Positions 1 to 5,682 of a DNA stretch of 25,477 bases are shown here, piece by piece. Under the pieces are notes generated by a model. That model did no database searches. It was not told the origin of the DNA and saw only the letters and a list, made by a program, of their open reading frames with translations. Numbering within the stretch: position 1 is the first letter of the stretch; every line of letters begins with the position of its first letter. The stretch comes from a virus (Duplodnaviria; Caudoviricetes), in IMG/VR virus record IMGVR_UViG_3300046805_000080, positions 1 to 25,477 of that record; one strand, 5' to 3'. The translations under genes were made by a program, and so were the position numbers.

Positions 1-218
1 GATGCTGACAAAGCCATTATTGGTAACATATAATACAATGTATAATCCAGCAACAATGCTGATGTAATTAATGAAATCCAAAACGATAAACAAGTAACAC
101 AACTAAACGGCTTTTTACGCATCATTGACATTTTGTAAAACCATCTTGGTAACACATTATAATGTGCTACGGCTAATGCACATAAAGCACTAATCAAGGG
201 ATAAATTATCAATTCCAT
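1..218 (-). CDS. Small membrane protein with KPFxCxxCxSFW motif (DUF1360-like), 3'-truncated at window edge
   Basis: Manual translation from ATG at 218: MELIIYPLISALCALAVAHYNVLPRWFYKMSMMRKKPFSCVTCLSFWISLITSALLLDY...; open to the window edge; start overlaps the end of the sigma-like gene; not in the ORF track. Confidence 0.75.
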   Translation of the reverse strand, partial: MELIIYPLISALCALAVAHYNVLPRWFYKMSMMRKKPFSCVTCLSFWISLITSALLLDYTLYYMLPIMALSA

Positions 219-735
219 TATTGTTAAACATTGTTTTTAATTTCTTTTTGATTTCATCCATTGTATAACAAATGCTACGATATGGAATTTTAGTCAATCT
301 GTTCATTTCTCGCATATTGTTTGTTTTCATAAACAACTTTAACATTTCTTTTTCATACGGAAAGCCTCCGTTTTTTGTCCAAGAATCAATTTCTTTTTCC
401 GCTAATGCCCATAACACATCTATATTATCGTTGTAAAATTCTTCTGCCGTTTCATAATTTGCATCCAAATATTCATCGTTTTTGTTGTGTCTGTATTTAG
501 TTGCAAATGGTGTTGTTGTGCAATTGTACAATGTCATTACCATTTTAACAACAAAAAATTTGAAATAACCTTTATTGTAAATGTCAATTATTTTGGCTTC
601 TGGCTTTTCCAAAAGGTATAACACAACTTCGTGTTCCAAATCTTTTGTCAATTGGTTGTTACCAGTTATGGTGGAACAAATTCTTTTAAGTTCCCCAGAA
701 CGATAAAAATCCAATATGATTTCAGATGCCTTCAT
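190..735 (-). CDS. Phage sigma-70/ECF-like transcription factor
   Basis: Likely start MKASEII (ATG 735, just after the upstream stop at 741). Region-2-like 'TKDLEHEVVLYLLEK...FKFFVVKMVM' and a C-terminal region-4 HTH 'NMREMNRLTKIPYRSICYTMDEIKKKL'. Confidence 0.7.
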   Translation of the reverse strand: MKASEIILDFYRSGELKRICSTITGNNQLTKDLEHEVVLYLLEKPEAKIIDIYNKGYFKFFVVKMVMTLYNCTTTPFATKYRHNKNDEYLDANYETAEEFYNDNIDVLWALAEKEIDSWTKNGGFPYEKEMLKLFMKTNNMREMNRLTKIPYRSICYTMDEIKKKLKTMFNNNGIDNLSLD

Positions 736-1129: not shown

Positions 1130-1371
1130 ATATTCTCTTTTTATATTATTTTATTTTATCTGTTCTTATCTTATCTATATAGTTACACTATCTTATAAGT
1201 GTGTTTAACACAACTTATAACTACCTTATAACTGGGTTAAAACTTGGCTATAACCATTTATAACACAAGTTTTTTATGCCTTATTGTAGGTTATAAAAGT
1301 GTTCAATAAAGTGTACATATACACAAAAAACCTTGTTTTTAGCCTTATTTAAGGCTTTTTTATGTGTATAA
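1130..1371. other. Putative replication origin: AT-rich tract, 11-bp phased iteron-like repeats, DnaA-box inverted repeat
   Basis: TTATC/TTATT runs 1141-1180; TATAAC-like units at 1192, 1203, 1214, 1225, 1236, 1247, 1257; TGTGTATAA (reverse complement TTATACACA) at 1363-1371 and ATATACACA at 1317-1325; lies at the divergence point of transcription. Confidence 0.55.
1192..1264. repeat. Degenerate ~11-bp tandem repeat, consensus about (C/G)TTATAAC
   Basis: cttataagtgt|gtttaacacaa|cttataactac|cttataactgg|gttaaaacttg|gctataacca|tttataac. Confidence 0.75.
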
Positions 1372-1448: not shown

Positions 1449-1815
1449 AATCATTGTTATATGATTGCTCCCTTGGAGGGGAGGGTAAAAATACTAACAC
1501 ATTACTGATGCGAATCAGCATAGTGAACCGAATGGTAACTATTGTTCTTATGTTACAGATAGCCAGATGTCTAAAAATTCTGGAAGCGGTAGTTGCGAAT
1601 TCCCAGATATTCGCTCACAATTTGTTAGGTGGACAAATAACAACCAATCCAGCCGCCTAATGGTGATTAAGGTAATAGTTTAAATGCATTACCGAGATAT
1701 GGGATAAGACCCATACGCATACTTTATTTTTTAGGCTGAACCATACCCAACACATTACAGACAATGTGTAGGTATGCGGACGCTGGTTGTTATGTGTTAC
1801 GGCATTATCCGTAAC
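1449..1815 (+). ncRNA. Putative large structured non-coding RNA or 5' leader (unknown family)
   Basis: GC-richer island with about 10 hairpins, a GCGA tetraloop and a perfect 10-bp long-range helix (1637-1646/1784-1793); no credible ORF; ends in a hairpin plus T-rich tract. Confidence 0.65.
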
Positions 1816-1830
1816 TATTTTATTTTATTC
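1796..1830 (+). terminator. Hairpin GTTACGG-cattat-CCGTAAC followed by a T-rich run
   Basis: 7-bp stem 1796-1802/1809-1815, then tattttattttatt. Confidence 0.5.
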
Positions 1831-1885
1831 ATTATTCCTTTTTTTACTTTATTCATATTTCAATTAACCTTTTCAATTTACAATT

Positions 1886-2353
1886 ATGAACTTTAATCAA
1901 ATGAATTCAGTAGTAGCAAAACTTGGTTTTAACTACGAAACTTTGCCAGATGTAATGGCACTCAAAACTGCAACCTTTCACTTGGTGTTACGGCAACACA
2001 CTTGGAAAGTATCTGACAATTTGTACATTGATGCTGACAATGAGTATTGGAACAAAACCACTATGGTTAATTCCACCCAAACTTATGCGTCATTTGTTAC
2101 AATTATTACTGGCATTTCTGCTCTTGGTATTTTAGGTGCTGGTATGAAAATTCGTAATGTTAATGTAAAATCTTTGCGTCTTACATTCGCTCAAATTGGA
2201 ATCTTCTTTGCTACCAAAGACCCAAAAGAAATGCGTAAAGAATTAAAGCAATTCTATGAATATGTTAAAATTGAATGGACTGATTGTAACACAATTCAAG
2301 ATAGAATTGAAAAAATTGCTAACCTTTATTACAAAGGGTTATTAACCGCTTAA
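1886..2353 (+). CDS. Hypothetical early protein
   Basis: 155-aa ORF with an A-rich TAACC-containing start region; first gene after the ncRNA. Confidence 0.8.
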   Translation: MNFNQMNSVVAKLGFNYETLPDVMALKTATFHLVLRQHTWKVSDNLYIDADNEYWNKTTMVNSTQTYASFVTIITGISALGILGAGMKIRNVNVKSLRLTFAQIGIFFATKDPKEMRKELKQFYEYVKIEWTDCNTIQDRIEKIANLYYKGLLTA

Positions 2354-2376
2354 TCATTTTATCAATCATTTGTTAC

Positions 2377-2406
2377 GGCACTACCTTAATTGGTAGTGCC
2401 TTTTTA
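2377..2406 (+). terminator. Intrinsic terminator (copy 1 of repeated element)
   Basis: GGCACTACC-ttaatt-GGTAGTGCC then TTTTT. Confidence 0.85.
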
Positions 2407-2429
2407 TTTAACCTTAAATTATTTCAATC

Positions 2430-2648
2430 GTGATTACTATTCCAACAACCTATGCTCACAAGTATTGCAAATCAATTGCAAGTGCTGAACGCTTTCAAGC
2501 CAAGTTATACAAACGATATGATGCCGTTAAATTGGTTGAATATCCGTATAACACAGAATCTGGTTTTTATACATTCGCTTGTAGTGGTTCACACGGCTAC
2601 AAGGCATTGCAACAACAATTGCTTGACGGCACATATCAATCCAAATAA
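2430..2648 (+). CDS. Hypothetical early protein (GTG start)
   Basis: 72 aa; fills the gap between intergenic modules. Confidence 0.7.
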   Translation: MITIPTTYAHKYCKSIASAERFQAKLYKRYDAVKLVEYPYNTESGFYTFACSGSHGYKALQQQLLDGTYQSK

Positions 2649-2698
2649 CACAACACAACAATTTAACCTTTCAAACCACAATTTAAAACTTTTCAATT

Positions 2699-2998
2699 AT
2701 GAATACTGATTTAATTCTCTTCAACATTAACCAAAATTATATTGGTCACAATGTAGCACAAGGCATTGCCAAATGTTTTCAAGCCTATGCCGACAATTGT
2801 CCAGCCGCAGATATTATGGAATGCGGACTCAATCGTAATACTGGATTTGTTTACATTGCGTTAGAAAACGGCATACAAATTGCATCTGCATTTGGGCAAG
2901 ATTGCGTATTCTTTGTTACTGATTTTGATAACGGCTCTGAACACGAATTTGATTCATACCAAGAAGCCGTTGATTTTAATCATCCAATGTCCCATTAA
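2699..2998 (+). CDS. Hypothetical phage protein
   Basis: 99-aa acidic ORF with 'GFVYIALENGIQIAS'; good start context. Confidence 0.8.
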   Translation: MNTDLILFNINQNYIGHNVAQGIAKCFQAYADNCPAADIMECGLNRNTGFVYIALENGIQIASAFGQDCVFFVTDFDNGSEHEFDSYQEAVDFNHPMSH

Positions 2999-3052
2999 TA
3001 ACACAACTTTATTATTTAACCTTTCAACCCACAATTTAAATTAAAAACCATT

Positions 3053-3598
3053 ATGAAAACTTTTGAAAAAATTGCCAATGACAATTCAATTTATGAAATT
3101 GATTTTACCAAATTTCCTAACATTGCTAAATACATTAATGTAGTTAGCGAAGATACTGGTGAGCCTTTTGAACATTCCAAAAAGGCATTGTTGTTTTTTG
3201 TTCGTGAACAATTTCTAAATTGGCTCAATGACCAATGCGAATTTTATTTGTCATACTTTGAAATAGAAAAAGAAATATTTAAACTGCAAGATGAAAAAGT
3301 CATAACAAATAATTTAATTAATGATTTCATTGCTAATGCACCAACAAGATATTTGGAATACAAAAAAATTGATGAGCGTAATTTAACCAATCTAATTAAA
3401 TATATGTTACGCACTCACGATTTATACCAGTTGCCATATGATTTTATTTGGATTACAAGAACCACAGATGAATTGCTAAAATGCATCCGCATTTGTCATA
3501 AAGAAGTTAAAGGTGCAGAAGATTATGTGCAACCGAGTTATTCCGAATGCGGAGATTTAGCAGTTTGGGAGTGTTTGTTTAATGCACCACATTTATAA
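3053..3598 (+). CDS. Hypothetical protein
   Basis: 181-aa ORF with good start context. Confidence 0.8.
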   Translation: MKTFEKIANDNSIYEIDFTKFPNIAKYINVVSEDTGEPFEHSKKALLFFVREQFLNWLNDQCEFYLSYFEIEKEIFKLQDEKVITNNLINDFIANAPTRYLEYKKIDERNLTNLIKYMLRTHDLYQLPYDFIWITRTTDELLKCIRICHKEVKGAEDYVQPSYSECGDLAVWECLFNAPHL

Positions 3599-3618
3599 TT
3601 TGTATCATCTGTTGTTAC

Positions 3619-3649
3619 GGCACTACCAGTTTTTGGTAGTGCCTTTTTA
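3619..3649 (+). terminator. Intrinsic terminator (copy 2 of repeated element)
   Basis: GGCACTACCA-gtttt-TGGTAGTGCC then TTTTT. Confidence 0.85.
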
Positions 3650-3672
3650 TTTAACCTTTAATTTAAATCAAA

Positions 3673-3792
3673 GTGAAAAACCAAACCAAACAAAAGTTCA
3701 CAACATCCGACTGGTGCTTGATTGCATTCGGATTATTAGGTGTAGTTTATTTCTACATCCGTTTTTTTATTTCAATTTTCTTTAACCTTTAA
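3673..3792 (+). CDS. 39-aa single-TM microprotein (GTG start)
   Basis: Manual translation MKNQTKQKFTTSDWCLIAFGLLGVVYFYIRFFISIFFNL; fills the gap after terminator copy 2. Confidence 0.6.
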   Translation: MKNQTKQKFTTSDWCLIAFGLLGVVYFYIRFFISIFFNL

Positions 3793-3804
3793 TCAATCAA
3801 TGTT

Positions 3805-4200
3805 ATGAAAACTCACAAATTAATTACCACATTAGACCTTATCTATGATGCCACAGATTGGGCAATGCGTAAAACAAAAATGGATTGCAGTTATTTTAAT
3901 TCGTATATGGAACAAGACAATATTACAACAAATGTGTTATGTACCATAGAATTTACGATTGAAAACGATGGCATTGGTCATTATGAATTTTGGGGAAGCA
4001 AAGGTTATGATGCTGGTGTAGATTATGCCGTTATTAATTCTATTCGTTGGAATAGAATAGCATTCCCAATTTTAATTAATACTTTGCTTGATGTTTACAT
4101 TAATGAGTGTATTGACGAAATAACTGATAAACTGCAAGATGAATTAATAAATAGCATTAGTGCTAATGATGAACCAGACCCAGATTCAAATCGTAATTAA
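3805..4200 (+). CDS. Hypothetical acidic protein
   Basis: 131 aa with 'GIGHYEFWGSKGYDAG' motif. Confidence 0.8.
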   Translation: MKTHKLITTLDLIYDATDWAMRKTKMDCSYFNSYMEQDNITTNVLCTIEFTIENDGIGHYEFWGSKGYDAGVDYAVINSIRWNRIAFPILINTLLDVYINECIDEITDKLQDELINSISANDEPDPDSNRN

Positions 4201-4224
4201 TAAACCATTTAAACCAAAAACAAA

Positions 4225-4491
4225 ATGAAAAACCTAACACCAAAACAATTTCCAAACCACAGACCCATTAAATTAATTGCCCAAGATATAGAAATGGATT
4301 GGGGCAATATGAGTCCATATGCCAAACCATATTGGGAGGCAATGCGTGAATTAACTTGGATTACGGATTCATATTATTATGATTCCGCAGAATCTGTCTT
4401 GCGTTATTTCTTATCCAATGCACAAAGTTGGAAAGGCGAAATTGCAAAACAAATTAAATCTGAAATCAAAGACATTCTTAAAACTTGCTAA
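4225..4491 (+). CDS. Conserved hypothetical phage protein
   Basis: 'IAQDIEMDW...YAKPYWEAM...DSAESVLRYFLSNAQSWKGEIAKQIKSE' resembles a widespread small phage family. Confidence 0.85.
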   Translation: MKNLTPKQFPNHRPIKLIAQDIEMDWGNMSPYAKPYWEAMRELTWITDSYYYDSAESVLRYFLSNAQSWKGEIAKQIKSEIKDILKTC

Positions 4492-4500
4492 TAATTTGTT

Positions 4501-4734
4501 ATGAAAAACAGACCACATAGTGTGACTCACATTACGGATTCAGAATCCATTGATGTCAATTTGATATTCAAATATTACAAACTTGCCGTTGCTGAATTTC
4601 CACCCAAGCAATTATCAACTGGCAAATGGTTGCATTGCTTTCGTGTAACACCATACGCAAGTTATGATACATTTTCCGATGGTACAGACCCAGATGTTGA
4701 ATGCCAAGCGTATTATTCCGAGATATACGGCTAA
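4501..4734 (+). CDS. Hypothetical protein
   Basis: 77 aa, tightly packed after the previous gene. Confidence 0.7.
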   Translation: MKNRPHSVTHITDSESIDVNLIFKYYKLAVAEFPPKQLSTGKWLHCFRVTPYASYDTFSDGTDPDVECQAYYSEIYG

Positions 4735-4800
4735 CACAATTTAAACCATATGAAAGAGCGAATTATACCACTATTTGCGGAATGCCCATAGAACGCATTT

Positions 4801-4878
4801 TAAGGCATTTTAACGGACTCTGTGCATTAAATGATATTTCTATATCATTTGTGGCTTTGGATTCGTTAGGATGCCTTA
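4801..4878 (+). other. Long imperfect RNA hairpin (processing or regulatory site)
   Basis: 17 contiguous basal pairs (3 G-U) plus a 9-bp apical stem AAATGATAT/ATATCATTT. Confidence 0.65.
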
Positions 4879-4936
4879 TTTTCCGTTATACGCACATTAC
4901 CCTTTTCACATTTATCCAAACCTATAAACTTTTATT

Positions 4937-5143
4937 ATGTACAATATGACAATTACCGACACCTATGGATTAACCGATTACTGCGTTGAAATGGGATACA
5001 AATTTCAATATGTGGATGGTAACAATGGTTACGAAGATGAATTAGAAATCCTTGTACCATTTGCACCAACAACACAAAATGTATTTCAATTTGCCATTGA
5101 TTATTCCAGATGGTTTTTCGTATCAGATTTAAATGACAATTAA
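4937..5143 (+). CDS. Hypothetical acidic protein
   Basis: 68-aa ORF with good start context. Confidence 0.7.
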   Translation: MYNMTITDTYGLTDYCVEMGYKFQYVDGNNGYEDELEILVPFAPTTQNVFQFAIDYSRWFFVSDLNDN

Positions 5144-5163
5144 CCCTTAAAAACAATTAAACA

Positions 5164-5682
5164 ATGAAACACAAATTTAGAACCACAAACATCAAAGGCA
5201 AAGAATATGTAATGGTTGCCGACAAACTTGCTTTCTTCCGTAACAATGAACAATACAATGGTTGGTCTATTGAAACGGAATTTGTTGATTTAACCCCAGA
5301 CCATTGCACCATTAAAGCGTTTGTCAAAGACCAAAATGGTCGCACCATTGCGACTGGTCACGCTCACGAAATCCAAGCGTCATCAATGATTAATAAAACA
5401 TCATATGTTGAGAATTGCGAAACATCGGCAATTGGTAGAGCATTAACCATTTGCGGAATTGCAATAGAAGATTTTAGCATTGCAAGTGCCGAAGATGTTA
5501 CCAATGCAATTGCAAAGCAAGAATTAATTCAAGCAAATGAAACATATCAATCATTGTTAGCAAAACTTGACCCAGAAACCGCAAGACAATTTAGCAATGT
5601 TACTGGGTTTACACTTGAAAGATACCAAAAAGGTATTGCGTATTTAACTAACTTAATTGACCTACAATCTAAAATCAAATAA
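5164..5682 (+). CDS. Single-strand annealing protein, Rad52/Sak-like
   Basis: 'IKGKEYVMVADK...IATGHAHE...INKTSYVENCETSAIGRAL' motif set. Confidence 0.75.
   Translation: MKHKFRTTNIKGKEYVMVADKLAFFRNNEQYNGWSIETEFVDLTPDHCTIKAFVKDQNGRTIATGHAHEIQASSMINKTSYVENCETSAIGRALTICGIAIEDFSIASAEDVTNAIAKQELIQANETYQSLLAKLDPETARQFSNVTGFTLERYQKGIAYLTNLIDLQSKIK

Follow-up and report, generated by a model that had tools for sequence, protein, structure and literature searches.

The window analysed here is the whole stretch of DNA given above, which is the complete virus record IMGVR_UViG_3300046805_000080 (25,477 bases, estimated completeness 81%), and the element in question is a large structured RNA close to its start. 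An initial annotation had placed this RNA at positions 1449-1815 and described it as a new multi-domain RNA between an origin and the early operon. The sequence runs that carry the window come from freshwater. The genes of the window include those for portal, tape-measure and lysis proteins, a DnaB helicase and an initiator-like protein; from its promoter and boxA patterns the host is probably a member of the Bacteroidota. The RNA is flanked by a leftward Bac_DnaA_C gene (741-1082) and by rightward early genes starting at 1886, and the sole open reading frame (ORF) within 1449-1815 is a 68-amino-acid TTG frame without a Pfam match. The island is GC-richer as stated, with a G+C content of 0.39 in 1501-1800 and 0.29-0.32 on either side. 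The unit itself was borne out, while its limits were drawn too narrowly: it spans about 1421-1820 and runs from a promoter, a 5' hairpin and a ribosomal RNA (rRNA)-type boxA to a terminator. The upstream "origin" is no more than possible: that region contains a DnaA box and a palindrome, and nothing that marks it as an origin.

A Bacteroidota-type promoter is predicted on the + strand (TTTG at 1387-1390, -7 box at 1410-1418), and an equivalent pattern is found at the equivalent place in L002, a representative of a second phage lineage (L002/L005). The promoter is overlapped by a perfect 14-base pair (bp) palindrome (1388-1401) common to both lineages. Transcription would start near 1421 on the + strand; the promoter pattern used finds a site in 12 of 21 control rRNA leaders. 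Next come a 6-bp hairpin in the boxB position (1421-1439, +), which has 7 bp and other letters in L005, and the boxA-like element GTTCTTTA (1442-1449, +). This element is kept in L005 and unchanged in X14 and X18, two DNA runs with strains about 92% alike to the window, which match the window from 1387 onward. Among 30 16S loci of the phylum to which a Ferruginibacter genome belongs, no 7-mer is commoner in the leaders than GTTCTTT (19/30), which also occurs in 23/30 spacers; it lies within the last 200 bases of 14 of the 21 long leaders, and six further copies are present in the window. Two features of rRNA leaders were therefore found at the head of this unit: a boxA of the host-phylum consensus, and a hairpin that closely follows the promoter and immediately precedes boxA. 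The order promoter, hairpin, boxA is the layout described for rRNA leaders in excerpts of PMC13753749 and PMC8632103, and an excerpt of the latter has the boxA end of the RNA anchored at the polymerase exit channel by the Nus factors. At three further boxA-like sites found in phage spacers, folding does not surpass that of shuffles.

All helices named in the initial annotation are present in the sequence (14 of 15 checked out at their stated positions, and ACCG/CGGT was located at 1527-1530/1587-1590), and the best supported of them is one that had been listed as an alternative pairing. This central helix (1622-1632/1653-1663, +) has 11 bp, is the strongest in the region and has a 10-bp counterpart in L005; in X14/X18 it gains two compensatory pairs and suffers one break. 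The long-range helix 1637-1646/1784-1793 (+) has a 7-bp counterpart with other letters in L005 and is unchanged in X14/X18. Because its 5' strand (1637-1646) sits in the loop of the central helix, the two together are predicted to form a pseudoknot. A conserved core domain (1523-1618, +), in which X14/X18 carry no change, contains the helices 1523-1526/1615-1618, 1535-1539/1552-1556, 1563-1567/1579-1583 (with GUCUAAAA in the loop) and 1595-1600/1609-1614 (loop UCCCAGAU), the last two with four double changes relative to L005. Domain 2 contains hairpins at 1671-1693, 1698-1715 (loop AURAGA) and 1742-1776 (loop ACAGAC) on the + strand, with double changes relative to L005; the loop of the first takes a 65-nucleotide (nt) insertion in L005, and its pair 1673/1691 is compensatory in X18. 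The motif MCAGAYA occurs three times on the + strand, in one junction and two loops (1555-1561, 1603-1609 and 1757-1763), and all three copies are kept in L005 despite differing stems; the whole contig has 16 copies versus 9 expected. Upstream of the core lie a variable 5' segment (1450-1499, +), with 7 substitutions and 3 insertions or deletions in X14/X18, and a 5-bp hairpin with a GNRA loop (1505-1518, +). The latter has three compensatory pairs and a changed but still GNRA loop in X14/X18, and a different stem with a GNRA loop in L005. The closing pairing of domain 1 (1494-1499/1623-1628, +) is rebuilt with two double changes in L005 and weakened in X14/X18, where one pair is lost and one wobble gained; it is possibly a folding intermediate or a switch state.

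Comparison with the two strains provides the best evidence for this fold, since the 88 tested pairs had been named before these data were considered. Six of the 88 changed on both sides, against 0.54 under a uniform expectation (P=5e-6) and 1.4 under a local-jitter control (P=4.5e-4), and by eye all six remain Watson-Crick. The 24 positions of 1494-1793 that differ in X14/X18 all avoid 1520-1626 (P=1.5e-5). One of the listed pairings fared worse: two of the five CCTAA/TTAGG pairs are broken in both strains. Survival of the GNRA loop through change and the recurrence of G-U pairs point to the + strand. The homolog in L002/L005 lies at the equivalent place, is followed by a different gene, and is 60% identical over 292 aligned columns. 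Twelve helices of the window have counterparts with other letters in L005, and in a plain alignment of the two sequences, from which the structure was also drawn, 20 pairs are aligned, 40/40 cells pair and 5 pairs are double-changed. The second lineage lacks counterparts of ACCG/CGGT and of the flanking hairpin 1468-1483. The folding energy is lower than that of shuffles (z = -3.2 for the + strand and -5.7 for the - strand), yet it is not decisive: of 33 comparison windows of 367 nt taken elsewhere in the contig, four have z < -3 as well, so that folding energy alone decides nothing. Four further pairings or resemblances were tried and dropped. A 15-bp helix between boxA and 1658-1672 is broken in X14/X18 and only partly formed in L005; in L005 alone can the RNA pair with TGTTAC in the terminator cassette; second copies of the 1595-1600 strand are found in too few sequences to be judged as a switch; and resemblances to group I introns and RNase P fall in non-conserved letters.

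Covariance models of Rfam 15 gave no match at gathering score in the whole window (best E-value 1.2 in 1100-1950), and the best match of the L005 homolog (E-value 0.11) lies at its terminator. ARAGORN found no tRNA or tmRNA gene in the window, hence no tRNA island. This agrees with the initial annotation, in which no tRNA, tmRNA, RNase P, intron or hammerhead core had been recognised. The invariant core of the hammerhead ribozyme is CUGANGA...GAAA; the CUGAUG at 1505 changes in both strains and has no Rfam match, and a hammerhead was rejected. Retron msr-msd and omega RNA were rejected because no reverse transcriptase, IscB or TnpB is encoded among the scanned proteins (the window is 81% and the relative G001 97% complete). 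Pattern scans of viral contigs for the RNA or its leader and for the terminator recovered two types only, that of the window and that of L002/L005, to which the terminator scan added G001; the other matches (1/3, 0/2, 66/68, 55/57 and 11/15 loci), mostly in coding DNA, were attributed to chance, as were all five matches of a metagenome scan. No homolog was found in 174 loci that surround related proteins, searched with nhmmer plus a hairpin descriptor, in 99 other loci (covariance model), in 150 host-phylum genomes (model), in 301 genomes by BLAST (eight short weak matches) or in named phages; these searches are samples and do not demonstrate absence. The G001 sequence ends about 1.4 kilobases (kb) before the expected place of the RNA, and L251, a spurious protein match, served only as an entry to the host-phylum genomes. 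The literature on phage and large RNAs, boxA and antitermination, as far as the available texts go, yielded no description of this RNA. Fremin et al. (2023) list 10,006 candidate structured RNA motifs of up to 151 nt (PMC10690425, available in part), and a sub-domain of the RNA may be among them; the portion of the supplements searched did not contain it. We conclude that the element is a real, new, multi-domain, structurally conserved and narrowly distributed phage RNA, which agrees with the novelty proposed in the initial annotation on the grounds of both the conserved fold and the missing Rfam match.

The genes downstream are punctuated by a set of near-identical terminators. The first and weaker one, T1 (1796-1825, +), has a 7-bp stem and a U tract and keeps the 5'-arm sequence of the family in stem and loop; at the equivalent place L005 has a 13-bp terminator of the same family. 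T2 (2377-2409, +) and T3 (3619-3652, +) are family members with hairpins of -16.6 and -16.8 kcal/mol, each followed by a U tract. Strong early-operon hairpins with U tracts (about -17 to -22 kcal/mol) number two in the window and three in L002, and every terminator-like hairpin of -16 or lower is a member of one family (2/2 and 3/3, respectively). The family turned up in this clade alone, which accounts for four of the 15 loci recovered by the pattern scan, the other 11 being chance matches. The two-box promoter pattern, with the recovery given above, finds no site on the + strand of window 1470-5400, where two terminators of about -17 kcal/mol stand; antitermination would be needed for the genes beyond them. 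In the spacer 3660-3800 (+) two more hairpins are present, one at about 3706-3735 and one, at about 3739-3759, that precedes a U tract; neither has a match to the guide described next.

A junction at 1588-1596 (+), between two hairpins with invariant loops, has the sequence of the terminators' 3' arm but for one additional U, and is therefore complementary, with one bulged U, to their 5' arm. It is a candidate guide. No other site in the window RNA suits the arms of T2 (-11.7 kcal/mol) and T3 (about -11.8 to -12.0) as well as the junction, which pairs with the T1 arm at -9.2; L005 has own-lineage energies of -10.9 to -11.6, and cross-lineage combinations range from -6.5 to -10.0. In a fixed register the window junction makes 8/8 pairs with each of its own T1, T2 and T3, and the L005 junction makes 12, 12 and 10 unbroken pairs with its own three terminators, whereas all six cross-lineage combinations break at the fourth pair. 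When the arm columns were shuffled jointly, 10 of 3000 trials reached an equally good sum (P about 0.003, a post hoc value from only two lineages). The insertion at L005:3122-3195 forms a stem of its own, contains a fourth ACAGAC and shows complementarity to terminator arms, at -9.6 for those of L005 and -13.9 for window T1.

With boxA at one end and the candidate guide in the core, we give even chances to the reading that this stretch is a boxA-tethered, cis-acting processive antiterminator leader at the head of the early operon. In this model boxA would recruit host Nus factors, which would hold the leader at the RNA exit of the polymerase; whenever a family terminator emerged, the junction 1588-1596 would base-pair with its 5' arm and so delay the stop hairpin until too late. 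The completed hairpin, at about -17 kcal/mol, is more stable than the guide duplex, at about -12, and could thereby release the guide for the next terminator. Where transcription ends at T1, a free and stable leader RNA would result. What is inferred here comprises the start and strand of transcription, the binding of Nus factors, the tethering, the occurrence of the pairing in cells, and read-through. For the pairing of the guide with the terminator 5' arms in particular we would argue only tentatively. It is likewise conceivable, if somewhat doubtful, that the element represents a natural, reusable guide-RNA antiterminator, parked on the polymerase by Nus factors, which disarms a bespoke terminator family as a co-evolving lock and key with no need for a phage protein. 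Among the scanned proteins (sets of 29, 17 and 45, partly overlapping) no NusG-, N- or Q-type family was found. The initial annotation had offered four functions, and it is the antiterminator leader that gained specific support here; primer, ribozyme and protein scaffold gained none.

A number of observations weigh against antitermination by a guide. The match was found post hoc, after many features had been viewed, and because only two lineages are available the coupled change of guide and terminators amounts to essentially one event. With 10-nt arms the L005 junction (-8.5) is beaten by three other sites in L005 (-9.1 to -9.8), and the window T1 arm pairs less well with its own junction (-9.2) than with the L005 junction (-10.0) or the L005 insertion (-13.9). 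The window guide is predicted to be partly paired under the conserved helices (GGU 23-28% free) and almost fully paired in the free fold of domain 1. In G001 the equivalent operon has a terminator of -12.7 that an L005-type guide does not match (-3.8). The guide amounts to 9 of about 400 bases and leaves three CAGAY loops and the pseudoknot unexplained. The common terminator stems could come from copying of gene cassettes. As for the apparent lack of internal promoters, the pattern misses 9 of the 21 control leaders, L002 has one internal promoter candidate, and a sigma-like phage protein might use other promoters. Finally, an RNA contig across genes is no proof of a single transcript.

Evidence for transcription comes from public runs and bears on both this reading and its main competitor. 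The stretch was present in 20 runs, six of them RNA, and the contigs of five RNA runs were placed (X20, with a share of 0.22, and X21 stood outside the contig placement). These contigs cover 1476-1732, 1488-1745, 1546-1779, 1433-1628 and 1478-1653, all inside the unit, while DNA contigs cross both of its ends. In X11 and X12 the RNA region is the only long contig (at least 99%) in 20 kb; X15 has two others. In X17, 28 of 30 bins are covered, and an RNA contig at 1807-2805 spans T2; no contig covers 1629-1806, a gap that proves nothing, and the depth is 55 versus 7.6 next door, although contig depth cannot rank genes. Four of the RNA runs may stem from a single river campaign, and neither the strand nor the ends nor the level of a transcript can be read from contigs. 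The metatranscriptome check suggested earlier therefore returned contigs in five RNA runs, which hint that the RNA is transcribed; the runs were found with this very stretch, and the result is a hint and not a proof.

The same data fit a stand-alone, abundant and ornate phage RNA similar to ROOL or GOLLD, an alternative which we regard as unlikely though worth serious attention. In that case boxA would protect or chaperone its synthesis, T1 would be its true end, and the conserved loops (one GUCU and three CAGAY) would make tertiary or intermolecular contacts, possibly in an oligomer. Such an RNA would account for its own promoter and terminator in both lineages, for five of five RNA contigs within 1433-1779 where DNA contigs pass both ends, for the sole long contig in X11/X12, and for the depth in X17 within the limit just given. 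It would also explain the conserved loops better, and a conservation of the core far beyond the needs of a 9-base guide. ROOL and GOLLD are phage RNAs joined by kissing loops (PMC12286853, excerpt), and like them the window RNA is large and many-stemmed, with a predicted pseudoknot, and it may be abundant; it differs from them, as described in that excerpt, in being shorter, in having no Rfam match and no tRNA island, and in its narrow distribution. No tRNA genes lie near it, it turned up in a single small clade, and the search for loop-loop contacts backed by double changes found none. Nor would such an RNA explain how the early genes are reached or why the complementarity to the terminators is lineage-matched. 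The antiterminator leader and the stand-alone RNA are compatible, and both could hold.

A conventional attenuator seems improbable. It would switch, on a ligand or protein, between the fold with 1494-1499/1623-1628 and 1650-1654/1734-1738 and the fold with 1622-1632/1653-1663, and would decide read-through of T1 only. Both folds do exist in both lineages with other letters and with similar predicted energies once the pseudoknot helix is added to the second (-78.2 versus -67.6 plus -11.0; -86.7 versus -81.1 plus -8.1). Yet neither overlaps T1, T2 and T3 would stay closed, and in X14/X18 the first fold is weakened and the second compensated. The switch raised in the initial annotation thus stays possible as a pair of competing folds, with no sign of terminator control. 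The two closing helices of the first fold have counterparts in L005, and the structure models would allow it to be a transient fold during transcription or a switch state. Very improbable, in our view, is a decoy: an RNA that is the first to be produced on infection and whose three CAGAY loops would sequester an RNA-binding protein of the host. The motif is found three times in exposed places, is kept in both lineages and has an early position; no candidate protein was found, Rfam gave no match to a CRISPR repeat or antitoxin RNA, and the motif is somewhat frequent contig-wide, as counted above. A ribozyme, a replication primer RNA or a packaging RNA, to which size, pseudoknot and the DnaA box 50 bases upstream might point, is hardly credible given that no ribozyme in Rfam matches, that the CUGAUG hexamer is variable, that the phage encodes a DnaB helicase as well as an initiator-like protein, that its relative G001 has both terminase subunits, and that the scanned proteins contain no reverse transcriptase, IscB or TnpB.

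Returning to the antiterminator leader, its nearest likeness is conAn2, a cis-acting RNA of 260-600 bp from pLS20-type conjugative elements (PMC8191782, available in part). Both are large RNAs that head an operon with many intrinsic terminators and have a long-range closing helix, and transient pairing with the 5' stems of terminators is one of three models put forward, untested, for conAn2 in that text. As described there, conAn2 acts on unrelated terminators and requires ConAn1, whereas here one matched terminator family is present and no partner protein was identified; the term boxA is absent from the available text, and the window RNA has a boxA-like element, and the two are likened by description only. 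The gene upstream is the divergent Bac_DnaA_C gene instead of a co-oriented one, which does not suit a conAn locus, and no direct search for ConAn1 was run. By analogy the RNA may work like conAn2 without being a member. It resembles rRNA leaders (boxB-boxA-boxC with Nus factors) in having a 5' hairpin directly followed by a boxA whose letters equal those of host-phylum leaders; it differs in that a 370-nt uncatalogued RNA and protein genes follow in place of rRNA, and boxC was not identified (compared with excerpts of PMC13753749 and PMC8632103). HK022 put is a protein-free RNA that lets phage early genes be read through terminators, but put binds the polymerase directly (PMC9378689, excerpt). 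Both put and Bacillus EAR are much smaller than conAn2-sized RNAs (PMC8191782, in the part available), and the window RNA matches no Rfam family. In 2021 only put, EAR and conAn2 were named as RNA-based processive antiterminators in the same text. The element offers a candidate natural case of terminator-stem pairing with a ready test by compensatory changes. If the antiterminator leader is true, a phage would use an rRNA-type boxA in a phylum in which phage transcription control is little studied, and the pair could serve as an orthogonal terminator and key; if the stand-alone RNA is true, it would still be a new class of large phage RNA for structural work.

Several observations were made on the surroundings of the RNA. 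The DnaA box at 1363-1371 (-) is the only one in the contig (1 found versus 10.9 expected). It lies 50 bases upstream of the RNA, near the gene for the DnaA C-terminal helix-turn-helix domain, and a perfect DnaA box is found at the equivalent place in L002, which suggests an operator or an origin. The 180-amino-acid protein encoded at 190-732 (-) has 672 relatives at E <= 0.001, and one of the 14 scanned relatives has a weak Sigma70_r2 match; judging from these sequences it is possibly a phage sigma-like factor without an assigned family. G005 has the sigma-like gene in a different gene order. The presumed capsid protein of the window has no match among 50,697 named phage records. The second lineage (L160:983-3435, which is G001, and L002) encodes QueC, QueD, a radical-SAM protein and FolE, likely a cluster for 7-deazaguanine DNA modification.

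Two short words recur in the window. The 8-mer TGTTACGG has 14 copies on both strands (0.44 expected), some within genes, at 1795, 1986, 2371, 3613, 5238, 7564, 10777, 14041, 16355, 18246, 20517, 21070, 23741 and 24480. It stands at the start of the terminator cassettes, and several copies are at homologous places in G001. It was rejected as a Chi-like word of the host, being without marked enrichment over control in 121 host-phylum genomes, and it is possibly a site for a phage DNA-binding protein. The second word, TTAACCTT, has six copies at 1864, 2408, 2663, 3016, 3651 and 3782, all on the + strand and 15-30 bases ahead of early start codons, and is likely the translation-start signal of a reused gene cassette.
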